From an uncultured Nitrososphaerota archaeon (lineage in GTDB: Archaea; Thermoproteota; Nitrososphaeria; Nitrososphaerales; Nitrosopumilaceae), in contig CAWGPD010000001.1 of the NCBI GenBank assembly GCA_963824385.1, positions 160,001 through 224,000 of the forward strand: a stretch of DNA of 64,000 nt, read 5' to 3'. Shown one piece after another: positions 16,013-63,840 of the stretch (positions are counted from its first letter, which is position 1; every line of letters begins with the position of its first letter). The notes under the pieces were generated by a model. It searched no databases. It was not told the origin of the DNA and was given only the letters and a program-made list of their open reading frames with translations. The position numbers and the translations under genes were made by a program.

Positions 16013-17165
16013 ATGATCTTTTCACATATTTCTGACACACATTTGGGTTTTGTTCAGTACCACTCTGAAGAGCGTGAAAATGACATATACTTGGCATTCA
16101 ATGAGGCAATTGACACATCAATAAAAGACCATGTTGATTTTGTCATACTGGCAGGAGACATATTTCACGTTCCAAACCCAAGTGGAAAGGCAATTGTTGT
16201 TTTGGCAAATGCATTAAAGCGTTTGAGACAAAATAATATTGATTCTTTTTTTATCCTAGGAGATCATGACATCAGTAGAATTAGATCAACCCCTGTTCCT
16301 TTTGTATACCACAATTTGGATTTTTCAAAATATATCGGAAATGGAAAATCAATAATTTACAAAAACGTATTCATTGCAGGGTTTGACAAACGCAGAAAGA
16401 CAGAGATTGAAACATTTGAAGAAGATTTTGCAAGAGTTGATGCAGAAGCCAAAAAACATCAGGGACATAAGATATTGGTCTTGCACCAAGGAATTGCAGA
16501 GATAAACAAGTTTGCAGTCTGAGTTAAACTCTACAGATCTTCCAAAGAATTTCACATATTATGCAATGGGTCATCTTCATGATCAAGATCTGAAACGATT
16601 CTCACATTTAGGAGGTCCATTAGCTTATCCAGGGTCAATCGAGATTACATCAAGTGAGGGAATAAAGGAAACACAAAAAGGATTTTATCAAGTAGACATT
16701 TCAAAATCAGAAGCCATACCATCATGGATAAAACTTGACATCAGACCGCAGATGTCTGTAAAAACTTCAATGAAGGACATCTCAAACGATGTAAACATAC
16801 TTGCTGAAAAAATCAAATCATATGCAAGAAAACCAATTATAGAATTAAAGATCACAGGTGAGATAGACCCCGGACTGGTCCAATCTCAGCTCGCCAAGTT
16901 GACAGATCTTACACTTCGCTGCCTTTGGAAACATATCTCTTCTGAGCAGACAAATGGTTCTGTCTTTATGGACAAACCACTAAAAATAGAGGAAGAGATG
17001 CGTCGGATTGCAAAAGAGATTCTAGGTTCTGAAGAGATGGCAAATTTTGCAATAGACGAACTCTTACCGTTACTATCAAGAGATAATATTGACCAAGCTA
17101 GTCAGGCAGTCAACGAAAATTTTGAACGATTCAAGAGGAGGGTAAAAAATGCTACAGTCAGTTGA
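16013..17165 (+). CDS. mre11: Mre11 nuclease, split by a +1 frameshift at about 16518 (likely sequencing error)
   Basis: SDTHLG, AGDIF and GDHD in ORF1; YYAMGHLH and YPGS in ORF2; deleting the T in AGTCT (16516-20) fuses them. Confidence 0.92.
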
Positions 17166-19224
17166 GCTAGTAAATTTCCTCTCTCATGCAAATACCAAAC
17201 TAACATTTGATAGAGGAGTCACAGTATTTGTAGGACCAAATGGGGCTGGCAAATCAAGCATCATAGATGCAATAACATTTGCATTATTTGGTGAGCACAT
17301 AAGAAAATCAGTAAAGGGACTTTTGCGAAGAGGAAGTAACCAATCATACGCCAAAGTAGAATTTTCCATAGGAAATAGGCAGTTTGAGGCTGTTCGCAAA
17401 ATAGACACCAAGGGAACAGTTGCCGCACAACTATATGAAAAAATAAACATGGAACTTGTTCCACTTGCTGCAGGAGAGAGAAAACAATTTGGTGAATCAA
17501 TGACAAAGACAATCGAGTCTTTAATTGGATTAGACTTTGAAAAACTAAAAGTTGCGTCCATTGTTCAACAAGGCGAACTGCAAACAATAATTGAGGCAGA
17601 TCCTAAAAAATTCAAGGAACTTGTCAATGCAATAATTGGCATCGACAAACTTGACATCGCTTATGAATTTATGAAAAAAACAATAGAGGAGTTTAGAGGA
17701 TCAATCAAATTGAAATTAAATTATGATGATACAAGTATAGATACTCTTCAGGCAAAGATTGAATCTCTATCAAAAGATATAACATCTCTTGAACCACAAA
17801 AGAAGAAATTAGAATCAGAAAAGATATCACAGGAGCAGGAATTTATCACATTACAACAAAAAATAGAATCAGAGGCCCCAAAGGAGACCAAGATTAAAGA
17901 TATTGAAAACAAAAAGGAAGATCTTCTCAAGTACCTAAGAAATTCCATCGTATCAATAAAACAAGAACTTGTAGAAAAGGAGAAAAAACTTGCTGATTGC
18001 TCAAGCAGCTTGTCAATTTTATCATTTAGGTCACAAGTAGAATCTGAGATAAATCATACCCAGTCAGAGATGGACAGGATTCGTATAGAATCAAAAGAAG
18101 CAGGAGAAAAAATAGCAATGATACGAGGTCAGCAAGATATTGTAAACAAGATACATCTTGTGGATGGCAAGTGTCCTGTTTGTGACTCTAAGGTGGACAA
18201 GCTTAATCCATTGTTTGAAGAAGAACATCTTAGAGCAGAACTTGATGCGCTAAAAAAGAAAACCGAATCACATTCAAAAGATGAGGTTACATTTCAAAGT
18301 AAAAAGAGAGAACTTGATTTGAAATTACAACAAATTGTAAAGGCAGAAGGTATCCTATCTTCAAACAGCATAAAAAACCAGGATGATTTAGCCATACTCA
18401 AAGAACAAGTGTCAAAACTACAGAGCAATATCAAGGACATTCCACTTGAAGTAAGTACTGGAAGTCTCATGCAATATGCAATTGATGACTATTCAATAGA
18501 CACAATCAAAGCCATAACAACTCTAGTCCAAGAGACGCAAGATTTTGATATAAATAATTTTAGAAATCTTAAATTAAAACTAGAACACCAGCGTAGAGCC
18601 CTTAGCGCATTAGACCAAGACATTGGCGCAGTTAATACAAAGATAACATTATACAAAGAAGAGTTACAGAAAATTTCTAAAATATTAATTGAGTTACAAG
18701 ATGTAAAGCATTATGTGTCAAGCCTTGATACAATTCGAAGTCAGATATACAACAGAGACGGTCCTGTTGCCACAAGTCTTCGCTCGTGGGCATTGAGTAT
18801 GATATCGCAAAAGGCATCAGAATATCTCTCAACATTTAATGTCAAGATTCAAAGAATTTCACTAGAAGACAAGGCAAGAGACATTGGAATTACTTGTCAT
18901 GCTGGAAATTCTGAATTGGATTTAGAATCATTAAGCGGAGGAGAAAAAGTAAGTGTTGCGCTAGCACTGCGTCTTGGGATGGCGCATTTAATGGGCTCGT
19001 CTAATCTAAATTTTATAATTCTTGACGAACCAACAACTCATTTGGATCAAGAGCGAAGAAAATCGCTTGTAAGTGTACTCTCACAGGCGTTTGAGTCAAA
19101 CATAGATGCAATCTCTCAGTTTATCATAATTACACATGATTCCGATATATTTGAAAACTCTAACATTGATGCAATTTATGATTTCAAATCAACGCCAGAA
19201 GGAACTCTGGTTACACCAATTTAG
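17149..19224 (+). CDS. rad50: Rad50 ATPase
   Basis: GPNGAGKSS, CPVC zinc hook, LSGGE, LDEPT and ITH motifs. Confidence 0.96.
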   Translation: MLQSVELVNFLSHANTKLTFDRGVTVFVGPNGAGKSSIIDAITFALFGEHIRKSVKGLLRRGSNQSYAKVEFSIGNRQFEAVRKIDTKGTVAAQLYEKINMELVPLAAGERKQFGESMTKTIESLIGLDFEKLKVASIVQQGELQTIIEADPKKFKELVNAIIGIDKLDIAYEFMKKTIEEFRGSIKLKLNYDDTSIDTLQAKIESLSKDITSLEPQKKKLESEKISQEQEFITLQQKIESEAPKETKIKDIENKKEDLLKYLRNSIVSIKQELVEKEKKLADCSSSLSILSFRSQVESEINHTQSEMDRIRIESKEAGEKIAMIRGQQDIVNKIHLVDGKCPVCDSKVDKLNPLFEEEHLRAELDALKKKTESHSKDEVTFQSKKRELDLKLQQIVKAEGILSSNSIKNQDDLAILKEQVSKLQSNIKDIPLEVSTGSLMQYAIDDYSIDTIKAITTLVQETQDFDINNFRNLKLKLEHQRRALSALDQDIGAVNTKITLYKEELQKISKILIELQDVKHYVSSLDTIRSQIYNRDGPVATSLRSWALSMISQKASEYLSTFNVKIQRISLEDKARDIGITCHAGNSELDLESLSGGEKVSVALALRLGMAHLMGSSNLNFIILDEPTTHLDQERRKSLVSVLSQAFESNIDAISQFIIITHDSDIFENSNIDAIYDFKSTPEGTLVTPI

Positions 19225-19709
19225 CCGCCGGTAAGCTTGGCAAATTTTTCATTCTTGCAGAGATGTTCCATGAATTTTAGGTTCGATAATGCAACTACTG
19301 CAGAATCTCTAACTTGTTCACTTGAATCTTCAAGTGCTTTTTGTAGTGTCTCTTTTGCATCCTGAGAGCCAATTACTCCTAGTGCGACAGCTGCCTCGTG
19401 TCTTACAAATAGACTAGGATCGTTTCTAGTTGCGTCCTCTAATGGTTTTATTCCACTTCTTAGACACATCTGTCCTAAAGAGAATGCGGCTTCATGTCTT
19501 ACCAATTCATTAACATCATTTTTCAATATGTTTGCAACATGAGGAACAACATCTTCTCCTCCCATATCTACAAGAATACAAACGGTTCTGCATCTTATCA
19601 CAAAATCTTTGTGATCTAGCAAATGAACAAAGTATTCCTTGTCTTTTTTCTCATATTTCTCCTCCATTTCTGATAAGAGTTCAAGACGGTCTGCGGGAAT
19701 AACTTCCAT
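19221..19709 (-). CDS. HEAT-repeat protein, DOHH/PBS-lyase-like
   Basis: Two VRHEAA-x-x-LG repeats. Confidence 0.85.
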   Translation of the reverse strand: MEVIPADRLELLSEMEEKYEKKDKEYFVHLLDHKDFVIRCRTVCILVDMGGEDVVPHVANILKNDVNELVRHEAAFSLGQMCLRSGIKPLEDATRNDPSLFVRHEAAVALGVIGSQDAKETLQKALEDSSEQVRDSAVVALSNLKFMEHLCKNEKFAKLTGG

Positions 19710-20017
19710 GTAGACAATTTTATTGTCGAATATTTAGTCGTATTGACAAATATTATAGATGAAAGATATTCCAGTAAAACAAAATATTCTATATTCTAAA
19801 TTCATAATGAGATAGTACCGGACATTTACCATTTGAATCAATCAAATGATTCACTATTTCACAGAATTGATAAAATGTCTAATCCTGCCTTTTAAAAATA
19901 TAGTAAAAAAATTAAAACTGGATCATTTTAGACCATTTATTTTCATATCATACGTTACACCGTGTTTTGTGTCTAGTAAGGCTCATTAACTGTCAATATT
20001 CATTTATTGATCATATA

Positions 20018-22778: not shown

Positions 22779-23237
22779 GCTTCCATCTTTTCTTTTAAGA
22801 GATTTTTTCTAACCAATATCGGAATATTATAAAATGAAGACTAGTGCTATTGCGTCAGATGCACGATAGTTACGCATTACAAGATCATGTTTCCCTGTAA
22901 AATAGACATTTGCACGTAAGACATTACCGCTCTCGTAAACTTTGATCTTAACTAGAACAAGTTCGTTGAGCTCTGCTATCTCTTCTACCATGTTGTATAT
23001 GGTAGGTATTGCCCCACGCTGCCCTTCCATAAAATTAGTAATGTGTCTTGCCACCTCACCTGAGAAGGCACGCATGTGAAACTCCTTTCCATTAGTTGCA
23101 CTCAATATTAAAAGTCCTTCAACTCCGTATGGGTCTACAAAACCAACATGTGTTATCTTGGTTTCAGCATAATCAGAATCTGGAGGTTCGTCGATCTTCA
23201 CGACTGCTAGTATAACCCAATCACCCAAGATAAACAC
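22775..23237 (-). CDS. Bifunctional nuclease (DUF151) family protein, C-terminal +1 frameshift at about 22840
   Basis: RASDAIAL motif; removing one base at AGACT (22838-42) restores ...ALASFYNIPILVRKNLLKEKMEA*. Confidence 0.8.
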
Positions 23238-39038: not shown

Positions 39039-41233
39039 TTACTCGCTATCCACGTATTCGTCAGGTGTTGGCACTTCGGGTGCAAGTCCCTTTCTCTTTC
39101 TAATATCACCAATTACTTTGGTCAGAATAGAGTTTGGAATTGGAGTCCAAGCTTTAAAGTGAGTGTTCCACATTGCACGTCCTGCAGTTTGACCACGCAT
39201 TATCTCAGACAAGTCAAATGTTTCTGATGCTGGAAGTTCTCCTGATATGATATGTATGACACCTTTTTGTTCCATGTTCAAGACCTTGCCACGCTTTCCA
39301 GATATTACACCTGCAACGTTTCCAATCATCTCTTGTGGCACACGTACTTCAATTCCAAGCATTGGCTCTAGCAATACAGGTTGAGCCAAAAGCATTGCTC
39401 CTGTACAGGCTCGCCTAGATGCAGGTCCTAGTTGTGATAGGCCACGATGGGCTGGATCCTCGTGTGGAACAAAGTGTGTAAATGTAAACTTGGCCCCTCT
39501 TACCTGTTCTCTTGCAAGAGGACCTTCTTTAACAGAATCTTCAAATCCAGATAATATAGAATCAGTTGATTCCCCTACAAACTGGACACCCTTGGTTCCA
39601 TCCACCATGACATTACCTCGTATATCAAATCTCATGACACGTTTTGCCTCGTCGCCATCCCATCCTGCTTCTTTGAGAATCTTGGCAACTTCCTTCTTGT
39701 CCTTGTATTCGTTTAGTGTACCGTTTCTTATCATTTCAGCAATCTTTTCATCCAATGGTTCAACCTTCATGAAGATCTTGTTGTGTCTGTTTGGCGACTT
39801 GGACATGATAGGTCCTGCACCACCACGAATTGTCTCTCTATAATTAATCAACGGCTGAGATGTAACAATATCCACCTTGGCATCTGCAATCAATGCAGTT
39901 GCAATCTCCAAGTGTAGCACACCCATTCCAGCGATAATAGTCTCACCAGATTCTTCGTTAATTTTTACAACTAGATTAGGATCTTCTATAGTGATACGAT
40001 TTAACGCTTCAACAAGTTTTGGCAAATCTTTAGGATGTTTTGGTTCTACTGCAATTGATACAACAGGCTCTGATACATACTGGATTCCCTCAAATGCATT
40101 AATCCCTGGAATAGAAGATAAAGTCTGGCCTGCTCTTGCATGTTCCAATCCAAGCAAAGCTGGAATGTTTCCTGCTGCTAATTGTCCTACCATCTCTCTT
40201 TGGTTACCCATGAAAAAGTTTACAGATTGAACTCTGCCTTCTCGTTTTGTATCAATCAAATGTATCCTATCACCATCTTTTATCCTGCCAGAAAATAATC
40301 TTCCAATTGCAACAGGACCTGCTGCAGGGTCTACTGTCATGTTTACAATCATCATTACAGTTGGACCATTGTCATCACAATTCAAAAGAGCTTTACCAAT
40401 ATCAGATTCCAAATCTCCTTTCCAGATTTTTGGAATTCTATATTTTTGTGCAACATCAGGAGATGGGTGATGTTTTACAACCATTCCAAGTACTGCGTCA
40501 TATAATGGAGCTTTTTTCTGCAAGCTTCTTTACGTCGCCACCATCAGAATATGCTTCGTATATATCCTTGAACGAAATTCCCTTTTTCTTCATCACATCT
40601 GCATTAAATCCCCACTTGTCCTTTGCAGAACCAAATGAGACACTGCCGTCCTGAATGCTTACCTTCCACTTTTCCTTGTATTCAGGTTCTGCGTAAATGT
40701 CAATTAGTCTGTTAAAGTTTGTAATAATATCTAGCAGCCAAGCTTGCATCTTCTCTGGTGGCAATCTTAGTTCCTTTATGAGACGGTCAATCTTGTTGAT
40801 ATACAAAACAGGTCTCACTCTTTCCTCTAACGCCTGACGAGTTACAGTCTCAGTCTGTGTCATGATACCTTCAACTGAATCTGAAACCACTACTGCGCCA
40901 TCAATAGTCTCTCAAACTTCTTGTAACTCTGCCGGTAAAGTCAATGTGTCCTGGAGTATCTATCATGTTAATTACATATTCTTCGCCGTTTTGTTCATAA
41001 AGCAAAGTAACGTTTGCTTGGACAATTGTCATCTGTCTGTCTTGTTCAAGCTTCATCGAATCAAGTGCCAAAGCTTGGCCTGCAACAGATGGACTGATAA
41101 TTCCACTTGATGCAAGAAGACTATCACTCATGGTTGTCTTGCCGTGGTCTACGTGAGTCATGACTCCAAAGTTACGAATATTTTTTTTATTACCAATAAT
41201 ACTTAGAATTTGATCTGTTGCCTTGAACTTCAT
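39039..41233 (-). CDS. fusA: Translation elongation factor EF-2, split by two +1 frameshifts (about 40908 and 40514; likely sequencing errors)
   Basis: HVDHGKTT, DTPGHIDF, INKID and diphthamide loop HEDPAHRG; three consecutive ORFs rejoin by single-base deletions. Confidence 0.96.
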
Positions 41234-41292: not shown

Positions 41293-42198
41293 TTAGTAGA
41301 TCATGGAAGAACTAGCATTTCTTAATTTCTTTTCCTCTACAAAAAAGCATTCTTTTCTATTTTTTATTTTTGCCAAGTGCAGTGATAAAAATTCTGAAAC
41401 AAGGATGAAAAAGATAACTTGTCCAATTGGATTATTTGTTGGAGGATCTATAATTATAGGATGCAGCCCACATTTTTTTATTTGTTTAACAAGTTTTTTG
41501 TTATGCTTGTTTTGTTTTTCAAATATTATTACAGTATCTCCTTTTCTTGATGAAAACAGTCCCATGTGCGAGAACTGTTCTATTCTCTCATAGCGTACAT
41601 CAGAGCCTAAAACTTCTTGTAATTTTGCCGCACAGAACATTGCAATAGGATAACTGTACAGATTCCCTAAAACATAGACTCTGCCATGGATAGGCATTTT
41701 GGACACACCGTAAGATATATTGAAAAGTCTAAGGGAATTTGGCATCCTGAATTTAGTCACAAGAGAGATGCAGGTGAGAGCACTTGCAAGGAAGCATATA
41801 CTTCCTGCAGTCTGTATTCCCGTATTGTCAAATTTTAAATGAATTATACCATTACATGCATTTGCAAGTTTGCTTTTTGGATTTGCAGTTATTGCAGTAG
41901 ATATTTTTGATTGCCTTGCAAGTTTGATGTTTGATATCGTATTTCCTGAAATTGATATCAGATACAAATGGTGATTTCTCAAAAGTTTAGAATATTTTGA
42001 CAGGTCAAGTGGATCTAGTGCCTTTACTCTAAAATCAGAAAAGACTTCGGCAAGTTGTGCAGATGCAAACGAGTCTCCAGTTCCACAAAATATGGCCTTT
42101 TGTTGATTTGGTACAGACAGTTGGGTTTGAGGTTTAAAGCGTTTCAAAAATTCAAGTTGCAGCATTATCTCGCTTTCAAAGGCAGCGATGGTATACAC
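41293..42198 (-). CDS. SIS-domain sugar-phosphate isomerase-like protein
   Basis: GTGDS, ISISGNT, ITANPKS and EQFSHM motifs; probable GTG start at 42198. Confidence 0.8.
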   Translation of the reverse strand: MYTIAAFESEIMLQLEFLKRFKPQTQLSVPNQQKAIFCGTGDSFASAQLAEVFSDFRVKALDPLDLSKYSKLLRNHHLYLISISGNTISNIKLARQSKISTAITANPKSKLANACNGIIHLKFDNTGIQTAGSICFLASALTCISLVTKFRMPNSLRLFNISYGVSKMPIHGRVYVLGNLYSYPIAMFCAAKLQEVLGSDVRYERIEQFSHMGLFSSRKGDTVIIFEKQNKHNKKLVKQIKKCGLHPIIIDPPTNNPIGQVIFFILVSEFLSLHLAKIKNRKECFFVEEKKLRNASSSMIY

Positions 42199-43641: not shown

Positions 43642-44584
43642 CTAATCAATACCTATTTTCTTTCTCAATATCTTTACGTTATTCCGAATTGTCACAGTAC
43701 TGACTCCTGATGTATTTGCAATTTTCTCCTGAGTTATTTTTTCTTCATTCAATACTCCTGATAAAAATATGGCAGCGGCTGCAAGAGATACAGGATTTTT
43801 TCCATCAGATATTCCTAATTTTTTTATATCATGTAGAATACCAAGTGCATCCCTTTTTGCCTTCTCGCTTAGACCTACGGTAGTACCAATCTTTGATACA
43901 AACTCGGACGGATCAAATGAGATTACTTGCAAGTCAAGTGCCTTTACAAATACCCTGTAATGTCTTGAAAGATTCTTAAACGAAATGTTACCAGTATCTG
44001 CAATTTCCTGTAAGGTTCTTGGCATGTTTGCTTCTCTGCAAGAAACATAGAGTGCAGAAAGTATCATTCCTGTTATGGTTCTTCCACGTGTGATGTTTTT
44101 GTTTATTGCTTTTCTATACAGATATGCATGCTCGTTCAATTATACTATCAGATAAATCCAGTTTAGACTTTGCCGTTCCCAAGACAGTAAAGGCTGTACG
44201 TAAGTTTCTTTCATGTGAATTTGATCTACTTCTACTGTCCCACGTTCTTAGTCTGTTAAAGGTACTTTTCATTTGAGATGAAATGAAATTTCCTGAAGCG
44301 TCTCTGTCAGTATTTCCAATTATTGTTGAAAGCCCCTTATCATGTATTGACAGTGCTGAAGCCATTCCGTTTCTTGTATTACTGTTAAAATCTTCTACAG
44401 TGTATGATCTTTGTTCTGGGGTAGTATCTTCAATTTTATCCATAACAACCATGCCACATCTTGAGCAAAGCACTTCCCCACGTGAACTATCAGTCACCAG
44501 CGGTCCATGTTTACCTTGAGTTGATACACATGTTTCTGGGAATATTCCTTGCAGTAACAGTTTAGTTTTATTATTAACTATCAT
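43642..44584 (-). CDS. tfb: Transcription initiation factor TFB paralogue, +1 frameshift at about 44129
   Basis: GEVLCSRCG ribbon, ERNL, RGR, PRTL-EIA, GKNP-SLAAA, TQ-x-IA-x3-VS-VTIRN; removing one base gives IERAAYLYRKA. Confidence 0.93.
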
Positions 44585-45963: not shown

Positions 45964-47058
45964 AATGTTTTTAAAATATTGAAAAACGTATCTCTCTGAG
46001 CTGGCTCTCTACCAATCTCCTTAATCATATTTGCAGACTCAATGATAGAAGAGTTGGTTCCCTTGCCAGCTGCTTTGTAAATCTCCTCAGAGAATGCAGT
46101 CCCTACCAAGTCATTTCCTCCATATGTCAAGGCAACCTGTGCAAGTTTCTTGCCAAGTGCAACCCAGTATACAGAGATATTGTCAGAGCTCACCTGCAAG
46201 CATCAATCTAGAGATTGCAGTAATTCTAAGATCATACGTAGATGGGCTCTCTGATGTTACCAGTCCTTGCTTTTCAAGTTCGGTGTTATCAAGGCTGAAC
46301 TTTAGTGGAATCAGTGTAAGAAATCCCTTGGTTCTTTTTTGAACTTCTCTTAATTTTATCAAATGATCAATTATATGTTCAGGCTTTTCAATATGCCCAA
46401 AAAGCATTGTAGCATTACTTTTTATTCCAAGATTATGAGCCTGCTCTATAGTATCAAGCCATTCTTGTCCAGAGCACTTGCCTCTAACTATTTTATTTCT
46501 AATATCGGGATGGAAAAGTTCTGCTCCTCCTCCTGGCATTGTATCAAGTCCAGCTGCTTTGAATCTGGTCAATACTTCTTTTACAGAATTTTTTGTCAGT
46601 CGTGCAATAAAGAAAATTTCAGCCGCTGTAAGTGCTTTGATGTGCATTTGAGGAGAATTTTGTTTTATTGTTCGAAACATTTCTTCATAGTATTCCATTG
46701 GAAGTTCGGGATGAAATCCACCCACAATATGCACCTCAGTTGCGCCCATCTCTTTTGCAATTGCGACTCGGCTTGCAATATCTTTGGAAGATAGAGTGTA
46801 TGCATCTTTTTCATCTCCTTTTCTATAAAATGCACACATCTGACAACTAGCAGCGCAAACATTTGTGTAATTCATGTAGTATGATGCGGCAAACGTAACT
46901 TGTGATCCTACTCTTTGCTCTCTAACCATATCTGCTGCAGCACCCAGCATGTACAAATTATCATAAGACATTAGTTCCATGCCATCGTCGTAGGAAAGTT
47001 CTTCTCCTGCAATAGCTTTTTCAAGGGCCTTTGATTCCTTGACTAGTTTTTCTAGCAT
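45960..47058 (-). CDS. mqnE: CofH/MqnE-like radical SAM enzyme (aminofutalosine synthase), +1 frameshift at about 46186
   Basis: NYTNVCAASCQMCAF, HIVGG, IKALTAAEI, MPGGGAE and NATMLFGH motifs; fused C-terminus LAGELDNISVYW. Confidence 0.85.
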
Positions 47059-47147: not shown

Positions 47148-47546
47148 ATGAAACTGCACCACATTGGCATTGTAGTAAATAACATCCAAGAGTCCATGGG
47201 TGAGCTCAAAAGATACCTAAACTTTGAGACAACAAGTGCCACATTTCCAGTTGGCAGCCAAAAAGTCAATATCTGCTTTTTAAAAATGGGAGAGCCATTC
47301 CTAGAGTTGATAGAACCAACGTCTCCTGACTCGGCAATAAGCGAATTTGCAAAATCCGGCGGAGGAATGCATCACCTGTGCTTTGAGGTAAAAGATATTC
47401 AGTCAGAACTTGATTCTCTTGTAGGAAAGGGGGCAACCATACTTGTAAATCCCGTAAAAGGTTTTGACGAACGCCGTATTGCATTTGTTGATTTGAATAC
47501 AAAAAATACCAAGTGTGGTCTTGTCGAACTGTTAGAGACAGGATAA
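47148..47546 (+). CDS. VOC family protein, methylmalonyl-CoA epimerase-like
   Basis: HHIGIVV, Q-x-V, LELIEP, GGMHHLCFEV and LVELLE motifs. Confidence 0.8.
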   Translation: MKLHHIGIVVNNIQESMGELKRYLNFETTSATFPVGSQKVNICFLKMGEPFLELIEPTSPDSAISEFAKSGGGMHHLCFEVKDIQSELDSLVGKGATILVNPVKGFDERRIAFVDLNTKNTKCGLVELLETG

Positions 47547-47551
47547 AAAAT

Positions 47552-48959
47552 TTAGAGATTATTTCTCAGATTAGATCTTGACGATATGCCAATTATAGCA
47601 ACAATGGATATCAAAAGTGCAATGGAGGCAAGCGGACCAAATTCTGGAACAAATGTTGTACTTTTTGAGAATGTTATAGTATGATTACCCTGTTGGCCTT
47701 GCTGCCATATTAAATAGACAACATTATTCAATGTGGACATATTGCTTATGTACGAATCAGTTACACTATTGCTTACATTTGTAGAATTTTGAAACGTATC
47801 TCCGCCATCTGAACTCTTTGTTATAAACACATTATATTTTCCAAGTGTGTTGTCAACCCAGCTAATGTAGATAGCGCTACCATCAGATGCAATTTTTGGC
47901 CAACCCGATGCGCCGACATTATTACTTAGATTTATCGGAGTACCAAAAGTGTTGCCATCATCTGTACTTTTTGCAAAATAGACATCATAATTTGGATGTG
48001 ATATAGTCTGGGTCCATGTCACATAGATATTATTTCCAGTGACTGCAAATTGTGGATATCCAGAAGCAGCACTAAGATTACTTACGTTAACGGGAGTTCC
48101 AAAAGAATTTCCCCCATCAGTACTTTTTGAAAATAAAATGTCATAATTTCCCGAAGTATTATCCATCCAAACGATATAGACATGTATTTTGCAATACCAC
48201 AATTTCAGGGGTTCCAGATTGCCCAGCATTGTTACTCACATCGACTGGAAGAGTAAATGACGCTCCGTAATCATCACTCTTAGACAAAAATACATCAAAA
48301 TTTCCTTTACTGTTATCCTCCCAAGTCAGATACACATTATTTCCAGTTGCAAGTAGTTTTGGAATTCCGGAATTTCCCAAATTATGAGTCAGATATAAGG
48401 GCATACCAATTGTGGTTCCATTATCATCACTTTTTTCAAAGACTATATTTGTAGAATCATTACCAGATTTTTCAAGCCATGTAAAATACACGTGGTTATC
48501 AGAGACAGATATTTGCGGAAATGCCGCAAGTTTTGTTGCATTACTGATCATCATTGGAGTATCAAAACTTGAACCACCATCGGAACTTTTTGCTAGAAAT
48601 ACTGAGGCAGTGCCAGTAAGAGACGTCTGCCATATCACGTATACATTGTTACCTTTTTGTGCAAATGCCGCATAATCTGATTGGCCCACATTTGAACTTG
48701 ACAGATTTATTGGATTGCCAAATGTATTTCCACCATCAGCACTTTTAGAAAAAAATACGTCGCTTCTTCCAGAATTGTTTTCTACCCACAGAGTAAAGAC
48801 TCCATCGTCTGAAGTTATGATGTTAGGATTTTGAGAATCAGATGTCATATTGCTGATATTAACAGGACTTGTAAAACCCGGCGATGTAGTTTGGGCAAAA
48901 CTTGGAACAATTCCAGACAGGGCAAAAATAATCAGAATTGCAAATACAAATATTTTCAC
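47552..48959 (-). CDS. Secreted BNR/Asp-box (sialidase-like) propeller protein with PEFG-CTERM, +1 frameshift at about 48184
   Basis: Repeated KS-x-DGG-x-(S/T)F Asp boxes; signal peptide; C-terminal FVPEFG + TM. Confidence 0.88.
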
Positions 48960-49490: not shown

Positions 49491-50998
49491 GTGAGAAATT
49501 ATGAGATCGAGGCTGCATGGCATTATCACAATGGTACAAAACATCCAAACGGAATGCTGCTTAGCAGATTTCATATGTATCACCCTTCACAAAGACCAAC
49601 CCCTTACAAGATTTACAAAAATGCACCGCAGGTCATTTTACCAATAGAAAAAAACTCGCTAGGAGTATCTACACTTGATGCCATTTCCACTAACCTTGAC
49701 ATCAGGGATACAAAAATTCCAGATTTACAAATATTGTCCAGAATTTTATATTTTTCAGCAGGGATTACAAAAAAGATAAAATTTCAAGGTCTAGGAGAGA
49801 TGGATTTTCGTGCAGCATCATGTACCGGTGCACTATATCACATAGAAATTTACGTCGTATGCTCAGATATCTCAGGTCTTGATGCAGGAGTTTATCACTT
49901 TGATCCAAAAAACATGAAGACTAAACGTAATACGACGTGGAGATTATAGAAAAAAAATTCTTGATTCAACTGCAAACGAGTCATTTACAAAACATTCACC
50001 AGTCATACTTGTTTTCACAGATGTCTTTGCAAGAAATTCTGTTAAATACCAATCAAGAGAATATCGCCATGCATTTTGGGATTGTGGAACAATATTAGCA
50101 AATACATTGGCAATCACAACTGCCCACAAAATACCTTCAAAGATAATAACAGGTTTTGTAGATTTGCAGATAGACTCAATTACTAGGATTAGACATGGTC
50201 CAAGAGGCACCTCTTGTAATTGTACCACTTGGAATAACAAACCAAGAAATGCCTCCCTGTCCTGACTTGTTAGAACTCAATTTAGAGGCAATTTCATCAG
50301 AGTATGAGATAGAATATCCAGAAATTAATGCCATGCACGATTCATCCTGCCTTCTAAATCAAAACGAGGTGGAATCATGGAGATATGAAATGACAAGAGA
50401 GCAAAAAAGTCATCCTCAATTGATTCAACTTGAGAAAAACATCAAAAATTTAGAATCAATAGAGCAGACAATAATCAAGCGCGGCTCTACAAGAAAATTT
50501 TCTCTAGAAACCATAACTTTTGAGCAGCTATCCACAATTCTTAGTTGTGCTACACCCGGAATTAATGCGGATTTTGTAAACCACGAGATACTATCAGATC
50601 TACATATCATAGTAAATGCAGTTGAAGGATTAGACTCTGGCTCTTACTATTATGTAAAAGAGAAAAATTCACTTGAATTATTACGTAAAGGAAATTTTAG
50701 ACCCACATCAGGAAATCTAGGATTAAATCAAGACTTGCCATATGATGCAAGTGTTACAATTTTCTTTATGGTAGATCTCAAAAAGATTTTAGAACAATTT
50801 GGAAATCGAGGATATAGAATAGCTCAGTTAGATTCTGCAATTGCGGGAGGCAAGGCATATCTTGCATCATATGCATTAGGTCTTGGTGCAACAGGACTTA
50901 CATTTTATGATGATGCAGTTACCAGTTTCTTTTCACCTCATGCAATAGATAAAGAGACGATGTTTTTGATTGCAATAGGAAAAAAAGAAAAATCCTAG
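49491..50998 (+). CDS. SagB/ThcOx-like dual-domain nitroreductase-family oxidoreductase, two +1 frameshifts (about 49920 and 50174)
   Basis: RAASCTGALY; hidden middle frame KYQSREYRHAFWDCG; RGSTR and GNRGYR motifs. Confidence 0.87.
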
Positions 50999-53930: not shown

Positions 53931-53965
53931 TCAAAATATAATAAAAGATAGTAAGTGGTTTACGA

Positions 53966-54526: not shown

Positions 54527-54742
54527 TTAAATAGAATATAAACTGGTACCATATATAACCAATTACATAGAAACCGTGACTGCAAAGGTAAAAGATCTTA
54601 CAGTATTATTTAAAATTAGAAAATTTACGATCTAAAATTTGATCGCAATTTTACAAATTAGAAAAAGATAACATACATTCAGAAAGTCAGCACAAAAATA
54701 TTTTCATGATATATATTTTGGTAAAAAATCAGCATCATTCAA

Positions 54743-55108
54743 ATGCATTCTGATGGAGATCATAGAAGATCTGAAGAGGACATACATTCAAAGACTGCAG
54801 AGATGTCTAAAATAAAAAAAGAGATTGAAACTGCAGATAGAATATTTTATGATGAACTTGCTAGCAAATATTTTCTGCTTGATAAATTTAGCCTAGAGCA
54901 GTTAAAGAATATGTGCAATACTCTGCTTGGCAAGGGTCCCGAGGTAGAATATTATGAAGATAGGCATACAAGTAAAATTACAGAACTTCCACAGTACAAA
55001 GAAGATTTCATTCATTTTATTATCGACGAATTCCAATATTTAGAAATCAAAGATTATGCTCTAAGAAAAAATATCCTTTCAAGTCATTTTTTTGATAACA
55101 GAAATTAA
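54743..55108 (+). CDS. Hypothetical protein
   Basis: 121-aa ORF. Confidence 0.6.
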   Translation: MHSDGDHRRSEEDIHSKTAEMSKIKKEIETADRIFYDELASKYFLLDKFSLEQLKNMCNTLLGKGPEVEYYEDRHTSKITELPQYKEDFIHFIIDEFQYLEIKDYALRKNILSSHFFDNRN

Positions 55109-55109
55109 G

Positions 55110-56543
55110 TTATTTTTTCAATATAGTCAAGTTGAGAAATACAGTCTTTGTCACATATCCATCAGATGCACTAATTCCAACAGTATAGTTTCCAGGAGAG
55201 ACACCTCCATCATGAATAGTCGCCAAGACTTGTTGATCATGTGAAAGATCTATCACATTAGATGCAAATCCTACTGTGAGATTGCCAAGTTCAGCAGTAG
55301 GAGTAATTGTGCTTGACGCGTTTAAAAAGACAGAATTTGGAGAATGTAAGCCGCCCTGAATTTCCAGGGTAATCATATCGTCAGTTTCATTGGAACTAAG
55401 AATAATCTGTTTTTTACTAGAAGAGATTTCAAATGGAATTGGGATATGCCCGTCTATCACTGCAACTTTATCAGTATTCCATTCAGAGAACCATAAAATT
55501 TTTTCATCTCGAGGGTCTTCTGATATGTTAAGTGGATAAGTGATATAACCTCCCGTAGGAATTGAAGGAATAGAGTATTCGGTTAATGTGTTATTTTCCA
55601 AGTCAAAACAGCCAATCTTATTTCCCTGATGTTCATTAAACCATAAAATTTTAGGATTTTCCGTACCACGAATCCAAAAAGGCAAGGTAGTAGTATGAAA
55701 AGTATTTTGAGATGTAGGATATCGAGTCATTTTTCCAGTATCAAGATCATATCTAGTAAGAAAACTTGTTCCATGTTCTGTAAGCCAGACAGAATTATTT
55801 TTTATTATTATATCAGTTGGTGTTGAAAACATAGAATAGTTATCCTTGGGAATATTTTGAAGTGCAGTTATATTTCCAACAAAATTATTTTCGCGAGTAA
55901 TATGATATTGTGAAATTTTCTGTGAATCAATGTTAGCTGTCCATATGAAATCATTTTGTAAAAATATACCAGCAGGAGTTGTGTTATTGCCAGTTTCAAA
56001 AGATGTGACTTTATAATCACCATCTGTAGATTTTTCTATTACACCAATTGTATCACCACGCAAAGTGGTAAACCAGATCTCCCCATTATTGCCAACTTTC
56101 ATCTGAAAAGGAGATCCTGATTCAGAATGAAATGAGTGAAATGTGTCATTTTCTGGATCTAACTGCCAGATTGTTCTAGTACCAAGTCCTGCAAACCATA
56201 TCTTCCCATCATGGTCTTGTACCATTGCCCACACCATTGTTAAATTTCCATGCTGTGTGTTAGGCAATGAGTTATCTTTAATCTCAAAATTGGAAATAGT
56301 TCCATTTTGTGGGTCTAGTGAGAGTAATTTTTCTGAATCAGAAGTTGTTACCCATACAATACCATTATTATCCACCAGTAAGGCATTTGGCTTTGTTCCT
56401 TCTGGTAGAGAATACTCTTTAACATATGGCCCATGCGTGTTTGTTATATTTTTTGAAAAATTACCATACTCCCAAACACCAAGTATAACAGACGTGATTG
56501 CAATTATTACCACAGTTGATACCAAGATTAGTTTGAGGTTCAA
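55110..56543 (-). CDS. Membrane-anchored Vgb-lyase-like beta-propeller protein
   Basis: N-terminal TM; repeated G-x-IWF/VW blades. Confidence 0.85.
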   Translation of the reverse strand: MNLKLILVSTVVIIAITSVILGVWEYGNFSKNITNTHGPYVKEYSLPEGTKPNALLVDNNGIVWVTTSDSEKLLSLDPQNGTISNFEIKDNSLPNTQHGNLTMVWAMVQDHDGKIWFAGLGTRTIWQLDPENDTFHSFHSESGSPFQMKVGNNGEIWFTTLRGDTIGVIEKSTDGDYKVTSFETGNNTTPAGIFLQNDFIWTANIDSQKISQYHITRENNFVGNITALQNIPKDNYSMFSTPTDIIIKNNSVWLTEHGTSFLTRYDLDTGKMTRYPTSQNTFHTTTLPFWIRGTENPKILWFNEHQGNKIGCFDLENNTLTEYSIPSIPTGGYITYPLNISEDPRDEKILWFSEWNTDKVAVIDGHIPIPFEISSSKKQIILSSNETDDMITLEIQGGLHSPNSVFLNASSTITPTAELGNLTVGFASNVIDLSHDQQVLATIHDGGVSPGNYTVGISASDGYVTKTVFLNLTILKK

Positions 56544-56634
56544 ATTACTCTGAATCTCTTGTGATAGTGTCTTTGCATATTAGTCTCTCGAAAATAGAGG
56601 CAATATAATATAGGAAATCAAAGTATGAGACTTT

Positions 56635-57150
56635 GTGAAGAAGCGATTCTATCTTTTTCTCCCAATCTATTTTAGCTTCTTTGTAGTTCTTGGAGTCTAC
56701 GAAGTAATCCATCCTCCGTTTAGTACAGATTCAACAAGGATTGGAAATTATGAGATAAAAATAGAAACTACACCGCCAGTTCCAGAGACAGGAAAAGATA
56801 CTCTAATTCACTTTCTAGTTCTTGATGAGAACGGAAGACCCGTTGATAATTTTAGGATGGGAATTCAGATTTTTTATAATGACAATTTAGAAAGTTCATT
56901 TCCACCTGCTGACCATAATGCAGGAAGATATGACTTGAATTACATATTTGGCGAATCTGGAAATCATGTAATCAGAGTTGATCTTTTTGATCTTAACAGT
57001 GACCAGGTGTTATCACATGCATTCAATGTTGGCGTGTTAAACTTTTACATGAACGTGTTCATCTATCTAGTAATAGCAGGAGTAGCAGGAGCTGCAGGCA
57101 TCGTTATTGCAATAATAATTTATCAGAGAAAAATTAGTAAGACAAGGTAA
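56635..57150 (+). CDS. Membrane protein with extracellular Ig-like domain
   Basis: N- and C-terminal TM helices; PP-x-P..G and F-x2-SG-x-H pattern. Confidence 0.65.
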   Translation: MKKRFYLFLPIYFSFFVVLGVYEVIHPPFSTDSTRIGNYEIKIETTPPVPETGKDTLIHFLVLDENGRPVDNFRMGIQIFYNDNLESSFPPADHNAGRYDLNYIFGESGNHVIRVDLFDLNSDQVLSHAFNVGVLNFYMNVFIYLVIAGVAGAAGIVIAIIIYQRKISKTR

Positions 57151-57291
57151 AAGATGTGTGGCATGGCCCTATTGACAGAATGCTTGGAGATTACCTCCGT
57201 TGAATCAGACGCCATTGCGTGGATTCGTGTAAGATTTCTGCCGGACCATGCATCGTCAAGCCATTGATGACTTTACGATCACAGCCATCTT
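57151..57291 (-). ncRNA. Candidate structured ncRNA of unknown family
   Basis: Six nested helices, G-U wobbles only on the minus strand, TATA-like TTAAATAA at 57310-03. Confidence 0.65.
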
Positions 57292-57382
57292 ATCATTACA
57301 AGTTATTTAAGAACGTGTATCAACAAACACACAAACCTACAATATAAATAAAAATCAGATCACAGAGTTTTTTTAAGAATAA

Positions 57383-57577
57383 TTATTCAAGCAGGTTCCA
57401 GAATCTAGAATAACGAAATAGTCCTACCCAGCCAGATATGAAACACGCAAGAGACAAACAAAATAACAGGTAAAAGCCCCTCTTGCTTTTTGCAATATCA
57501 AGGTCTAAGAAGATAAATGTGCCCATTCCTATTAAACCAAAAAAAAGTATCAGTCGGCCTAATCTTTTTAGATTCAA
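57383..57577 (-). CDS. Small two-TM membrane protein
   Basis: Two hydrophobic helices. Confidence 0.5.
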   Translation of the reverse strand: MNLKRLGRLILFFGLIGMGTFIFLDLDIAKSKRGFYLLFCLSLACFISGWVGLFRYSRFWNLLE

Positions 57578-57669
57578 TTATTGACACAACCAAGACGGCC
57601 AGATATAAAACAGATCTAGTGGTATAATTTCCCAGTCAAGATGAATTTTTCAAATCACTGGTGAGAAGA

Positions 57670-58137
57670 TCATACCAGTCCGCATTTTTCATAATACTGT
57701 TGGTGATAATCTTCTGCCTTGTAAAATTCTGTTGCTGGAACTATCTCAGTTACAATTTTTTTGCCATATTTTCCAGATTTTTCAAGTTCATCTCTTGACT
57801 GTCGTGCCTCTCTTTCCTGTTCAGGAGTGTGGAAAAAGATTGCAGACCTGTATTGCTTTCCAACATCTGGTCCTTGTCTGTTCAGTGTAGTAGGATCATG
57901 GTTATTCCAAAATATATCTAAAAGTTTACCATATGATATAATCGAGGAGTCATATTCTACTTGGATAACTTCTGCATGCCCTGTTGTATCAGTACAGACA
58001 TCCTCATAAGTGGGATTTTTAAGATGGCCTCCCATGTAACCTACACTTGTAGATATTACGCCATTTTTTCTAAAGTCATTTTCAATACACCAAAAACATC
58101 CTGCGCCAAATGTAGCTTTCAACATATATGATATCAT
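57670..58137 (-). CDS. msrA: Peptide methionine sulfoxide reductase A
   Basis: GAGCFWC, GHAEV, RQGPDVG-x-QYRS and AEDYHQQY motifs. Confidence 0.97.
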
Positions 58138-58154
58138 CTGACTTGAATTAAATT

Positions 58155-59396
58155 CTATCGCGAAAACAGATAAAGTGATTGGGCAACATCTTGATCAGAT
58201 ACAGTACCATTAGCCCACGAACACATCAATGTCTTGTCAGGGACTTGGCCTGAAATTTCAGATTCACCCTGAACAATCATCATATTATTAGAAACTAGAT
58301 AATTCACAAGTGAACTTAATTGGCTATCATCGACATACCCGTTACACCAAAATCCTACCGTTTTCTTAATCCATGATGGTATCTTATCCTGACCTACTAC
58401 TACATCAATTACAAATGATTTGATTATAGAATTTCCATTTTGATCCTTAGCAGCACATGTTACTGTTGTTGTACCTGTAGGGAAAAAAGAGCCAGACGGA
58501 GGAGAACAGATTGGAGACTGCAAGCCAGACAATATAGTAGAATTTAGATAATTTACACTAGTTCCAGCAGAATTTGGCGCATAAAAAACCAGTGACGGAG
58601 CAGATGAATATGGGGCAGCATTTGTGTTTGAGTTCATGTTGGTACTGCCATAAGAGCCAGTTACAGATTGCCCAGAAGAACCTCCCACTGTAACAAAAAC
58701 ACTTGAGGGGTTAGACGGGTCATCGAATCTAAATTCCAATGTCGAGCCTTCATACACGGGAGCTCCGGCAATTTCTGTTGGTATCTTGACAGTTACTGCA
58801 AATGTATCAGTATTTGGACCAGTCTCTCTTAATGTATATGGATTTGCCTGAAATATTGGATCTGCCAATGTAGTCTGGGCTCCACCCATGTGAACTTCAA
58901 CCATATTTAGCGGAATGTCATCAGGTGTTTGAGAATCAAGATTATAATTTGGAGCATAGATACTTAGTGTGAAATAGTGACCAATCATAACATTTGAAGA
59001 TGAGCCTGATACAGGACTAGAAACAATATTTGTAAGAACTACAGATTGAGTAAGTGTAGTTGGATTTCCAGAATAGTCTGCTTTCTCGTGATATGTCATA
59101 ACTACAACGTCTCCACCTTGCAAAGGTTCTCCGTTAACAGAGTCTGGCAATGTCAGTTGAATTTGAAAAGTACCAGTATCTATTCCAGTTTCCACCATGG
59201 CAGCAGGTCCAGGGACAGAGACTCCGTTTATTGTAAAATCAACCAGGCCTGCTGTTGGTATAGTCATTACTGCACGATGTTCAGTTGAGAGATTCAAATC
59301 TGTGATATAAAAAGTCAGAATTGTACCAGGTGTTGCAGACTGTGCATAGCACAGAGATAACGGCAACAAAAGTAAAATAAGAAAAAGCCTTTTCAC
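58155..59396 (-). CDS. Secreted protein with HYR-like domain and IPSWIK C-terminal module
   Basis: Signal peptide; ETG-x-NT repeats; [18 protein letters not shown]; IPSWIKK. Confidence 0.8.
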
Positions 59397-59866
59397 GTCG
59401 TATCTTGCCCAGATGATTTTAGTTCGTTTATCATAGCATCAGAGTTTTGAATCATGGTTGCTAGAATTTTTTTAGTTGAATCAAGTTGGTCTGCAGATAT
59501 TCCTCTGAAGAGCATTTTTCGCAATTGGAGAACAATCAATATTATGGAATCCACAGTTGACTCGGATTTTTTAGTAAGAAAAACTCTGTTCATTCTTCGA
59601 TCTTTTGGATCTGCCCTTCTTTCCACCAATCCATTTTTTTCCATCTTATCTATCACTGGAACAAGTGTACTTCCATCTACATAGATTTTGTCTGCAAGTT
59701 CCTTTTGGGTAAGGCCGTCTGTGATATTTAACGCAAGTATAACCTTCCAGTGAGCAGGTGTCAGTCCAAGTTGTTTTTTGATCTCAAGCTCTGCCAACCT
59801 TTCTTGTGATTTTGAGGCAAGCACGATTAGCATGCCTATACTATCGTTGAGGTCCAATTTACGCAT
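59393..59866 (-). CDS. MarR family regulator
   Basis: LTQKELA, IDKMEKNGLVER and DRR motifs; probable ATG at 59866. Confidence 0.93.
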   Translation of the reverse strand: MRKLDLNDSIGMLIVLASKSQERLAELEIKKQLGLTPAHWKVILALNITDGLTQKELADKIYVDGSTLVPVIDKMEKNGLVERRADPKDRRMNRVFLTKKSESTVDSIILIVLQLRKMLFRGISADQLDSTKKILATMIQNSDAMINELKSSGQDTT

Positions 59867-59867
59867 A

Positions 59868-59911
59868 ATGTATAATACATTCACTGGTATACAAATGATT
59901 GGTATACCAAT
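59868..59911. promoter_or_regulatory. Palindromic operator(s) upstream of marR
   Basis: Perfect ATTGGTATACCAAT (59898-911), a degenerate copy at about 59885, and ATGTAT-A-ATACAT (59868-80). Confidence 0.6.
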
Positions 59912-60113
59912 AGTTATATACAATCAAGTCAATATTATGTTATGTCTCCACAAGGTAAGACATCATCATCAAGTATACCCACACTTGTAGTCATATCTTC
60001 AGGTACTGCATTAGTCACCCACAACGCACCATTTTCGATAGCGCCAACACCATTTGTTCAAAATGCTCATGCTGCTTACGATTACATCCAAATTTCAACT
60101 GGAGTGTCAAGTC

Positions 60114-60656
60114 ATGCCTAAATCTAATTTAAAATCTTCAATTGGTTTTTTCTTTATCGCCATTCTAGTTATCGGAGTATTTTCATTCATACCGCCATCT
60201 TATGCTGACCGAGAAATTACATTGCAAAAGGTTTCTAATGTAAACGAGTCATCACTGCTTAATGCATTATCTAACGTGTCAGAATATCCACAAATATTTC
60301 CTGACAATGTAAAATCTGTAAAGATATTAGACAATAACACAAAACTTGTTGAGATGAATGCAGGCATAAATGGCATATTTTTTGACACAGAAGCAATATG
60401 CACAGTTGACGCAAATGGAAATTACGTCGTCCAAGTAGTTTCAGGTGACCTCAATGGAACTGTAATGACTACCAGCCTAGAGCCGACATGGGGATTTCAA
60501 GGTCAAAAAGATGGGGCAACAATTTCAAACATAAATTTGGATATAAAGACAACAGGAATTCTCTCATGGATGCTTAATTTTATTCCAGACAGTACAGTGT
60601 CAAATGCCCTTGGATATAGCTTTGACAAGTTCATTGAATATATCCAGACAACATAA
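60114..60656 (+). CDS. Secreted START/SRPBCC-fold protein
   Basis: Signal peptide; NVSEYPQIFP-x2-VKSV pattern. Confidence 0.65.
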   Translation: MPKSNLKSSIGFFFIAILVIGVFSFIPPSYADREITLQKVSNVNESSLLNALSNVSEYPQIFPDNVKSVKILDNNTKLVEMNAGINGIFFDTEAICTVDANGNYVVQVVSGDLNGTVMTTSLEPTWGFQGQKDGATISNINLDIKTTGILSWMLNFIPDSTVSNALGYSFDKFIEYIQTT

Positions 60657-61584: not shown

Positions 61585-62209
61585 ATGCCTACCATAGTAT
61601 TTGATTTTGATGGAACAATTGCAGATACGCTATCAGTAGTCATAAGAATTGCAAACAAATTTGCCGACCATTACGGATACAAAAAAATTCCCCTCAGTGA
61701 CTTGCCAAAGATTAGAGAGAAAAAGCCAAGTGCTGTATTAAAACACCTAGGGATATCAATATTCAAGACTTCCAATAGTTGTAAGAAAGATAAGATTTGA
61801 AATGAACAAGGAAATAGTTCATTTGAAAACTGCTGTAGACCTCAGAGACACACTTGTCCACCTCAAAGAAAATGGCTGTGTCCTAGGAATCTTGACTACA
61901 AACTCTAGAGAGAATGTTACCGAGTTTTTAAAGAATAACGATTTGCAATTGTTTGATTTCATATATTCTGGCAGAGCAGTGTTTGGAAAAGGCAGACTGC
62001 TAAAAAAATTGATGCACGATAAGACGATACCTCATGCTGATCCAATTTACATTGGAGACGAGATAAGAGATGTCGAAGCTGCAAAAAAGGCAGGAATCAA
62101 AGTCATAGGAGTGACATGGGGGTATAATACCAAGACTGCCTTGCTGACAGCTCATCCGGATCATGTCGTAGAAAAACCTGAAGAACTCAAAAGTATAATC
62201 CTAGAGTAG
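61585..62209 (+). CDS. HAD-family phosphatase, +1 frameshift at about 61768
   Basis: FDFDGTIADT, LTTN, YIGDEIRD and VTWGY motifs; AGACT->AGCT restores FKLPIVVRKIRFEM. Confidence 0.9.
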
Positions 62210-63080: not shown

Positions 63081-63135
63081 GGGTATACATAGGAAATAAT
63101 AAGATAAAAGCTTAGAGCCAAGATTTAACTTTATT

Positions 63136-63366
63136 ATGATTAAATGTCAACTATACGTCATGCCCATAAAACCAGAAGATGTAGAATCCGAGTTAATCAA
63201 GCAAATGTTTGACGAGATAATGAAAATGATTCGTGAAAAACACATCAAACTAGAATCCATTGTTCAGAGAATGGTAGAGCAGGGCAACATACCACAGGAA
63301 TCATTTGATAGAATATATGCACTCCTCACAGAATATGGCAAAAAGAAACAATGGGTTAAAGAATAA
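63136..63366 (+). CDS. Small hypothetical protein
   Basis: Helical ORF of 68-76 aa. Confidence 0.55.
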   Translation: MIKCQLYVMPIKPEDVESELIKQMFDEIMKMIREKHIKLESIVQRMVEQGNIPQESFDRIYALLTEYGKKKQWVKE

Positions 63367-63477
63367 TTCTAGTCAGTAAAGTTTGAGATCATATAAAAAT
63401 CCCTCAAGGCAAGACCCAGTTTTATAATATTTGCAAGTCATAGCATTAGATTAGTTTTTGGATAATTTTGGATATAA

Positions 63478-63840
63478 TCAGAGTGGAATGTTTAGATTTT
63501 TAATTTTAGCAATTATTTCATCATGGTTAGAATCTGGGTTTGTTGAAAGTATCAAAAGGCCATCATCAAGAAACAATGTAATTAGTTTTACTTTTTCTTT
63601 GGATGTTATCATCCAGTTTGTCCTGCCCAGTTTTTCGTTAAACATTTCATCCCATGAAGCCTTGACAGACGCTTGATAATGAGCCATGTTACTTCACTCC
63701 TCATCAAGCAATGGTGATGCAGATGCCTTTCTGACAAACGTAATCAATTTTCTGTCTTTTATCCTACCAACAAAACGAACGCTAGCATCAAGATTTAGGA
63801 TCTGGTTATATGGATCTGCCTGTTTTATACGCTGAGCCAA
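63478..63840 (-). CDS. Roadblock-like (DUF6659-like) protein with an in-frame TGA at 63696-63694
   Basis: TTG 63840 MAQRIKQADPYNQILNLDASVRFVG...PLLDEE*SNMAHYQ... continues in frame into ORF 63687..63478. Confidence 0.7.

Follow-up and report, generated by a model that had tools for sequence, protein, structure and literature searches.

The window considered here is a stretch of 64,000 bases (G000:C1:160001-224000) from a 1,677,330-base archaeal assembly (G000; five contigs, 86% complete by markers) in which a number of genes have interrupted reading frames, most of them in or beside the tetranucleotide AGCT. We consider it very probable (roughly 0.88) that these lesions are long-read consensus errors, made on native DNA at AGCT and at a second palindrome, GATC, that would be methylated by two orphan methyltransferases: an HG19-type enzyme producing N4-methylcytosine (m4C) and a Dam-type enzyme producing N6-methyladenine (m6A). 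The evidence comes from short-read contigs in which the same genes are intact, from the error spectrum across the genome and from the methyltransferase genes that the genome encodes; from these we infer the methyl marks themselves, a mechanism acting on both strands and the sequencing platform, which was probably nanopore.

The number and sizes of the contigs (25-700 kb each) and the absence of N suggest that G000 is of long-read origin. Public runs containing its DNA are soil metagenomes or metagenomes without a label. We call the organism a relative of Nitrosotalea because the nearest named homologues of one of its proteins, at 85-95% identity, come from Nitrosotalea species.

Interrupted genes in the window

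A first-pass annotation of the window, made from its sequence, had listed eleven lesions and a two-base swap and had proposed that AGCT is modified and that the genes are intact in vivo. All of the sequence contexts that it quoted (12/12) are present where it placed them. In a comparison with four genomes of the same genus (52,741 of the 64,000 bases aligned to at least one of them), single-base insertions were seen at 16518, 22840, 40512, 40908, 44128, 46186, 48184, 49918, 50176 and 61768, each supported by 2 to 4 of the 4 relatives and each at one of the listed lesions. The relatives encode full-length proteins at these genes, and deleting the extra base or bases lengthens the open frame in 8/8 frameshifted genes to match the relatives' lengths, the EF-2 frame, for example, growing from 496 to 731 codons. 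Pfam matches bear out the phosphoesterase, TFIIB, radical-SAM, BNR, nitroreductase and HAD labels; the name DUF151 is not borne out, the fragment in question being without any Pfam match. The eleventh lesion, an in-frame stop in a roadblock-like gene that had been ranked the weakest case, gained support, since both aligned relatives (2/2) have AGCT where the window has CACT. Indels seen against a single relative (e.g. 49446, 57601, 60993) were unshared by the others and were dropped.

Contigs from four public short-read runs (X1, X2, X4 and X7, from three studies) were then compared with positions 40201-60200, a stretch of 20,000 bases in the 64,000; runs that had few words in common with the window were left unused. 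Loose contig ends in these runs bear what we take to be tagmentation adapter sequence, which indicates amplified short-read libraries. At all seven listed frameshifts in this stretch (40512, 40908, 44129, 46186, 48184, 49920 and 50174) the extra base is absent in X1, X2 and X4, and X7, which spans three of the seven, agrees; X1, X2 and X4 are also without two bases at 47545. In the same three runs the predicted swap in EF-2 (41156-59) reads AGCT. The claim that the genes are intact in vivo thus holds for seven frameshifts and the EF-2 swap, and is likely to hold for the rest, namely 16516, 22838, 61766 and 63694, which fall beyond 40201-60200 and for which relatives and reading frames provide the basis. 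The BNR frameshift at 48184, singled out earlier as lacking AGCT, is indeed off-motif, and it too is absent from the short-read contigs.

Substitutions were counted over 40 of the 49 rows of differences, 32 of which, forming 30 events, are common to X1, X2 and X4. Among these 30 events, seven create AGCT against ~0.3 expected (p ~1e-8), and six of the eight shared indels touch AGCT (p ~2e-10). Left out of the counts were five substitution rows in X7 alone, three in one X1 contig and two indel rows in X1 alone near 52124. Substitution errors at AGCT prove commoner than the first-pass list had them, with further sites in 40201-60200 (Table 1). Of the 48 AGCT sites present in this stretch after correction, the assembly disturbs 13 (hand count).

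Table 1. Lesions in the window, in window coordinates; X1, X2, X4 and X7 are short-read runs
Position	Strand	Lesion	Support
16516..16520	+	mre11-like phosphoesterase gene split by AGTCT (extra base in AGCT)	+1 vs 4/4 relatives; 219 to 385 codons; Metallophos match
22838..22842	-	AGACT, extra base; last 21 codons of ~161-codon gene shifted	+1 vs 4/4 relatives; frame restoration; DUF151 name unconfirmed
40509..40517	-	EF-2: additional T adjoining AGCT, inside T run	absent in X1, X2, X4; +1 vs 4/4 relatives
40906..40910	-	EF-2: AGTCT in place of AGCT	extra base absent in X1, X2, X4; relatives agree
41156..41159	-	EF-2 G1 motif: AGTC in place of AGCT, two substitutions	41158 T>C, 41159 C>T in X1, X2, X4; translation
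41793..41796		AGCA in place of AGCT, substitution, not in first-pass list	4/4 runs
42053..42056		AGTT in place of AGCT, substitution, not in first-pass list	4/4 runs
44128..44132	-	tfb: ATGCT in place of AGCT	absent in X1, X2, X4; TFIIB domains in both fragments
46036..46039		GACT in place of AGCT, two substitutions, not in first-pass list	both in 4/4 runs; another change at 46038 in X7 contig
46186..46190	-	radical-SAM (mqnE-like) gene: extra base immediately before AGCT	absent in 4/4 runs; Radical_SAM and CofH_C matches
47545..47546		two additional A in A run, no motif	absent in X1, X2, X4; error or strain difference
47798..47801		ATCT in place of AGCT, BNR gene substitution	X1, X2, X4
48184	-	BNR-repeat gene: extra base, neither AGCT nor GATC	absent in X1, X2, X4; +1 vs 3 relatives
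48507..48510		AGAT in place of AGCT, BNR gene substitution	4/4 runs
49918..49922	+	nitroreductase gene: AGACT in place of AGCT	absent in 4/4 runs
50172..50176	+	nitroreductase gene: AGACT in place of AGCT	absent in 4/4 runs; removal of both bases extends frame from 155 to 504 codons
55108..55111		AGTT in place of AGCT, substitution	X1, X2, X4
61766..61770	+	HAD hydrolase gene: AGACT vs AGCT of relatives	AGCT in 3/3 aligned relatives
63695..63698	-	roadblock-like gene (first-pass name): CACT in place of AGCT, giving in-frame TGA	G009 and G005 read AGCT and encode Leu (2/2 aligned)

Strain-level substitutions relative to the short-read populations cluster at 41293-42282 (a SIS-domain gene) and 47552-48959 (the BNR gene), and 50000-60200 is nearly invariant. 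Because such differences surround 48184, a true strain lesion is possible there. Near 52,100 there may be a repeat or an insertion polymorphism, to judge from long loose contig ends at 50800 (X1) and 52089 (X1, X2, X7). At 41243-41246, just before EF-2 begins, 4/4 relatives have TTTAGCT and the window has no AGCT; this was first taken as an error but is treated here as a real species difference, since the spanning short-read contigs agree with the assembly (no substitution among the 40 of 49 rows listed, and no indel row).

The error spectrum across the genome

For the genome-wide analysis, ~920 kb of one relative (G009) and smaller samples of three others (G003, G002 and G005) were aligned to G000, and isolated indels within long reading frames of the relatives were counted as frameshifts. 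This identified 151 distinct frameshifts in 510,156 compared coding bases (0.30 per kb; 30% of the assembly), against four in 305,884 aligned bases (0.013 per kb; overlapping pairs) when the relatives were compared with each other using the same pipeline. Lesions are found on all five contigs, with similar frameshift rates on the four large ones (0.21-0.40 per kb), and extrapolation, assuming 88% coding, gives ~440 frameshifts per genome.

One-base insertions outnumber one-base deletions by 128 to 21. AGCT is restored by 88 of the 128 insertions where 13.4 would be expected (p 2e-55), restoration being defined as one deletion within 5 bases and the expectation being drawn from 20,000 random coding positions; with the AGTGT/ACACT form included the count rises to 93/128. 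The commonest forms, AGACT and AGTCT, are one lesion seen from two strands. GATC is restored by 22 of the 35 remaining insertions, against 5.0 expected (p 5e-11; the motif was chosen post hoc among 136 classes), and neither GTAC nor CTAG, considered as further motifs, is among the top motifs after removal of the AGCT events. The deletions are weakly enriched at AGCT by the test used (18/21 vs 9.4 expected). The enrichment at AGCT that the first-pass annotation proposed looking for is therefore present genome-wide, whilst AGCT as the sole error motif has to be given up; no GATC frameshift occurs in the window and the second motif was therefore invisible there. The annotation was also right that most lesions are not homopolymer slips, runs of at least four bases holding only 1/128 insertions (background 9%). 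Intact sites in the compared DNA number 1,286 for AGCT and 1,753 for GATC, AGCT being affected several-fold more often.

Whole-genome k-mer counts are without an artefact signal (observed/expected 1.01 for AGCT and 1.02 for AGACT/AGTCT). AGCT density varies by contig from 1.75 to 2.83 per kb, a relative being similarly low in regions matching the contig that contains the window. Under-represented words in G000 are CTTA/TAAG (0.67), GATC (0.73), GTAC (0.76), GGCC (0.76) and GAATTC (0.70).

Methyltransferase genes in this genome and its relatives

The enzyme responsible had been predicted to be encoded outside the window, and a fitting gene is found there. G000 encodes one full-length PF01555 DNA methyltransferase (G000:C4:401980-402825; TSPPY motif; PF01555 E 2.8e-42) and, in two pieces, a Dam-family (PF02086) enzyme (C3:101675-102422) whose gene is a 288-codon open frame in G009 and G039; both genes lie outside the window. 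The PF01555 enzyme would act on AGCT and the Dam-type enzyme on GATC, the link of the former to AGCT coming from the error enrichment plus the lack of any other candidate enzyme in G000. Searches for a 5-methylcytosine (m5C) enzyme (PF00145) returned 0 matches in G000 (86% complete), G009 and G039 (99%), and a second PF01555 match, on G000 C2, covers profile positions 160-221 only and was discounted as a DNA enzyme. The break in the Dam gene (L113:1305-2214) adjoins AGCT; an annotation pipeline would call a pseudogene here. Directly upstream in G000 and G009 are two membrane-protein genes (L113:85-1215) that, we assume, resemble ammonia monooxygenase subunits.

The neighbours of the PF01555 gene are a 3-dehydroquinate synthase II gene and a 99-amino acid gene, presumably Alba-like, with no restriction gene adjoining; beside this orphan arrangement, AGCT is not avoided in G000 (observed/expected 1.01). 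The synthase gene has a two-base insertion adjoining AGCT when compared with G009 and G003 (G000:C4:401201; L031 ~650). An inverted repeat, AAAACATG-n-CATGTTTT (L031:2350-2378), lies in the interval from the Alba-like gene to the start of the methyltransferase; it is conserved in many same-genus loci and is a candidate terminator hairpin or operator. Although one methyltransferase homologue bears the automatic name 'MjaI', GTAC and CTAG did not emerge as further motifs (see above). In 62 other loci, the surroundings of the methyltransferase gave no information on lesions of this kind.

The PF01555 enzyme is present in 17/18 genomes of the genus at 76-96% identity (two genomes unpublished), and homologues at 48-54% are found in 40/41 genomes of the family of G090 (recorded as Nitrososphaeraceae; one genome unpublished), where a 3-dehydroquinate synthase II gene adjoins in 11/12 loci. 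It shares 89% identity with the enzyme named for Ca. (Candidatus) Nitrosotalea okcheonensis, which we take to be strain CS. In a survey of methyltransferases, GATC (HG3) and AGCT (HG11, HG16 or HG19) enzymes are described as persistent orphans in Nitrososphaerota, and its Table S3 places 'Nitrosotalea species CS' in HG3 (GATC) and HG19 (AGCT), not in HG11 or HG10 (GTAC) (Anton and Roberts 2023, PMC10609329); this motif pair matches both motifs recovered from the errors in G000. Judging by Tables 3 and S3 of the survey, the near-universal Nitrososphaerales gene is probably HG19. A second copy in the same-genus genome G022, at 53%, groups closer in the tree to the clade of the G090 family, so that the protein meant by the Table S3 entry is ambiguous; G000 has a single candidate.

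In a single sample of 60 genomes from the family, each with a completeness of 90% or more (one unpublished; hand-counted), the G000-type enzyme (E <1e-40) and a second type, L094 (DPPF motif, presumably HG11; E <1e-100), are almost mutually exclusive: 22 genomes have the G000 type only, 34 the L094 type only, two have both and two neither, related genomes not being independent in this count and some being incomplete. The two types are 24-27% identical, and both states occur within genera g14, g19, g25 and g29. With this query no L094 type turned up in G000 or in 3/3 same-genus genomes, and on G000 C3 the flanking genes of its slot are present without it. In a number of Nitrosopumilus-like genomes (loci L206, L209, L212, L213 and L215) the G000-like type is flanked by a tatA-like gene on one side and a DEAD-box helicase gene on the other, a slot that holds the L094 type in four other genomes; four of these five genomes are without an L094-type gene by this query, G131 having a 71% partial copy elsewhere. 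Seven longer frames (436-639 codons) and one fragment among the scattered homologues were left out of the tree (8/58 rows). We would give even odds that AGCT methylation is so strongly selected in the Nitrosopumilaceae that the enzyme is swapped and not lost. If both types mark AGCT, there would have been repeated in-place displacement preserving an epigenetic mark, with a role that is probably essential. In the tatA-helicase slot, the HG19-like methyltransferase is followed by a 223-amino acid frame without a Pfam match (L206:2424-3095; absent in L212), which is possibly, at a guess, a restriction endonuclease later lost.

Alternative explanations and known systems

The explanation that we favour would require that the assembly was made from native single-molecule reads, uncorrected by amplified DNA, and that an HG19-type m4C enzyme marks AGCT and a Dam-type m6A enzyme marks GATC, both being orphans that persist in ammonia-oxidising archaea. 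Modified bases perturb the single-molecule signal, and basecallers untrained on such bases miscall the motifs (PMC6591954). Palindromes marked on both strands would be miscalled at one spot in reads of either strand and, there being no clean strand, the error could prevail in the consensus, though at a minority of sites. The usual outcome would be an A or T inserted between G and C (AGACT/AGTCT) or, at GATC, GAATC/GATTC; less usually a base would be added beside the motif, lost or substituted.

Several observations weigh against this explanation. Within 40201-60200 the assembly reads 35/48 AGCT sites correctly, in keeping with the earlier remark that many are intact; no GATC indel occurs there, so that the GATC motif comes from the comparison with relatives, and GATC is created by only 2/23 of the other shared substitutions (listed rows). 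Of those 23, 15 are synonymous, and because these differences are mostly synonymous the short-read runs appear to represent a slightly different strain, which means that they reveal intact genes in the population and not the sequence of the source DNA. Across the genome, 13/128 insertions match neither motif (one being the 50174 lesion, misplaced by alignment), and a test for asymmetry of substitutions is null against G009 (AGCT rank 104/136) and, with G003 as the comparison, only suggestive (121 lost as against 84 gained; rank 2/136). The evidence for methylation itself is indirect, coming from the contigs and the error spectrum, and the Nitrosotalea row of the survey is without a PacBio methylome, its AGCT assignment therefore being by homology (PMC10609329).

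Assembly errors could also stem from a weakness of the basecaller or polisher in AGCT and GATC contexts with no base modification at all. The evidence for methylation is indirect, and the excess of insertions (128 vs 21) could be a platform bias, but the sole two enriched motifs are palindromes that are methylated in this clade (PMC10609329, PMC6329791) and G000 has two matching enzyme genes, which makes this account improbable. More improbable still is that AGCT carries another modification in place of m4C, either m5C (as for AluI) or phosphorothioate: the error pattern is silent on chemistry, the assembly is incomplete by markers (86%) and phosphorothioation is mentioned for a thaumarchaeote (PMC8919816), yet no PF00145 gene was found in G000, G009 or G039 (no search was aimed at phosphorothioation genes), related methylomes assign m4C to AGCT (PMC6329791, Table 3) and the G000 enzyme has the SPPY motif. 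It is hardly credible that the lesions are real, whether in a strain that is decaying or hypermutable at AGCT or through programmed frameshifting. The short-read runs come from another strain and so cannot exclude strain-specific lesions singly, of which 48184 may be one, but EF-2 has two breaks although the genome is of normal size, ~440 frameshifts per genome are extrapolated, contigs more than 99% alike are without all seven that were compared and no slippery-sequence context was seen at the G000 frameshifts.

If, as we favour, the lesions are consensus errors at methylated sites, the broken genes are not real and any claim of gene loss or pseudogenes made from this assembly would be wrong. 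The frameshifts may also depress the 86% completeness figure, given that the assembly equals in size relatives that are 97-99% complete. Indirectly, the errors support the marking of AGCT and GATC in Nitrosotalea, which the 2023 survey had predicted from homology alone, and the near-exclusive distribution of the two AGCT-candidate enzymes strengthens its suggestion of a conserved epigenetic role (PMC10609329). If both enzyme types mark AGCT and one displaces the other, the error spectra of uncorrected long-read genomes would amount to a free assay for the AGCT mark across uncultured lineages. A literature search, to which subscription journals were mostly closed, brought up neither a report of assembly errors linked to AGCT nor a published methylome of Nitrosotalea. 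The class of artefact (PMC6591954) and the methylome were already known; new here are the short-read check, the second motif GATC and the indirect support for the predicted Nitrosotalea methylome.

The closest precedent for the errors is that of nanopore assemblies at the Dcm motif CCWGG, where ~70% of consensus errors in a benchmark lay in Dcm motifs (Wick et al. 2019, PMC6591954). In both cases errors concentrate in a short palindrome that is methylated or, here, probably so (93/128 insertions here), but the motifs in the archaeon are AGCT and GATC, with m4C and m6A as the probable marks, gene-breaking one-base insertions dominate and the platform is not on record. As with Hammerhead, methylation motifs are deduced from basecalling errors without raw signal, although that method uses strand-specific mismatches in reads and we used frameshifts in a finished consensus (PMC11610603); the Hammerhead paper has 0 mentions of AGCT or archaea. 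The statement in the first-pass annotation that AGCT methylation had been reported from thaumarchaeal methylomes is correct: in Nitrosarchaeum BD3, sequencing by the single-molecule real-time (SMRT) method found m4C at 96% of AGCT and m6A at 98% of GATC sites (PMC6329791), and AGCT is methylated at 82-91% of sites in two marine thaumarchaeal genomes (PMC8919816). The G000 enzyme shares its motif, and probably its chemistry, with M.NspBD3I and M.Nca01I (AGCT m4C; SMRT-measured in Nitrosarchaeum BD3; PMC6329791, PMC11033074), whereas the L094 type of most other genomes in the family, the probable HG11, is 24-27% identical to it. G000 also resembles the HG19/HG3 pair of the survey in its two enzymes, both motifs and the orphan arrangement, and the survey lists its Nitrosotalea genome as HG19, not HG11 (PMC10609329); whereas that genome's row carries no methylome data, the errors in G000 are an indirect sign that the genus marks the two motifs.

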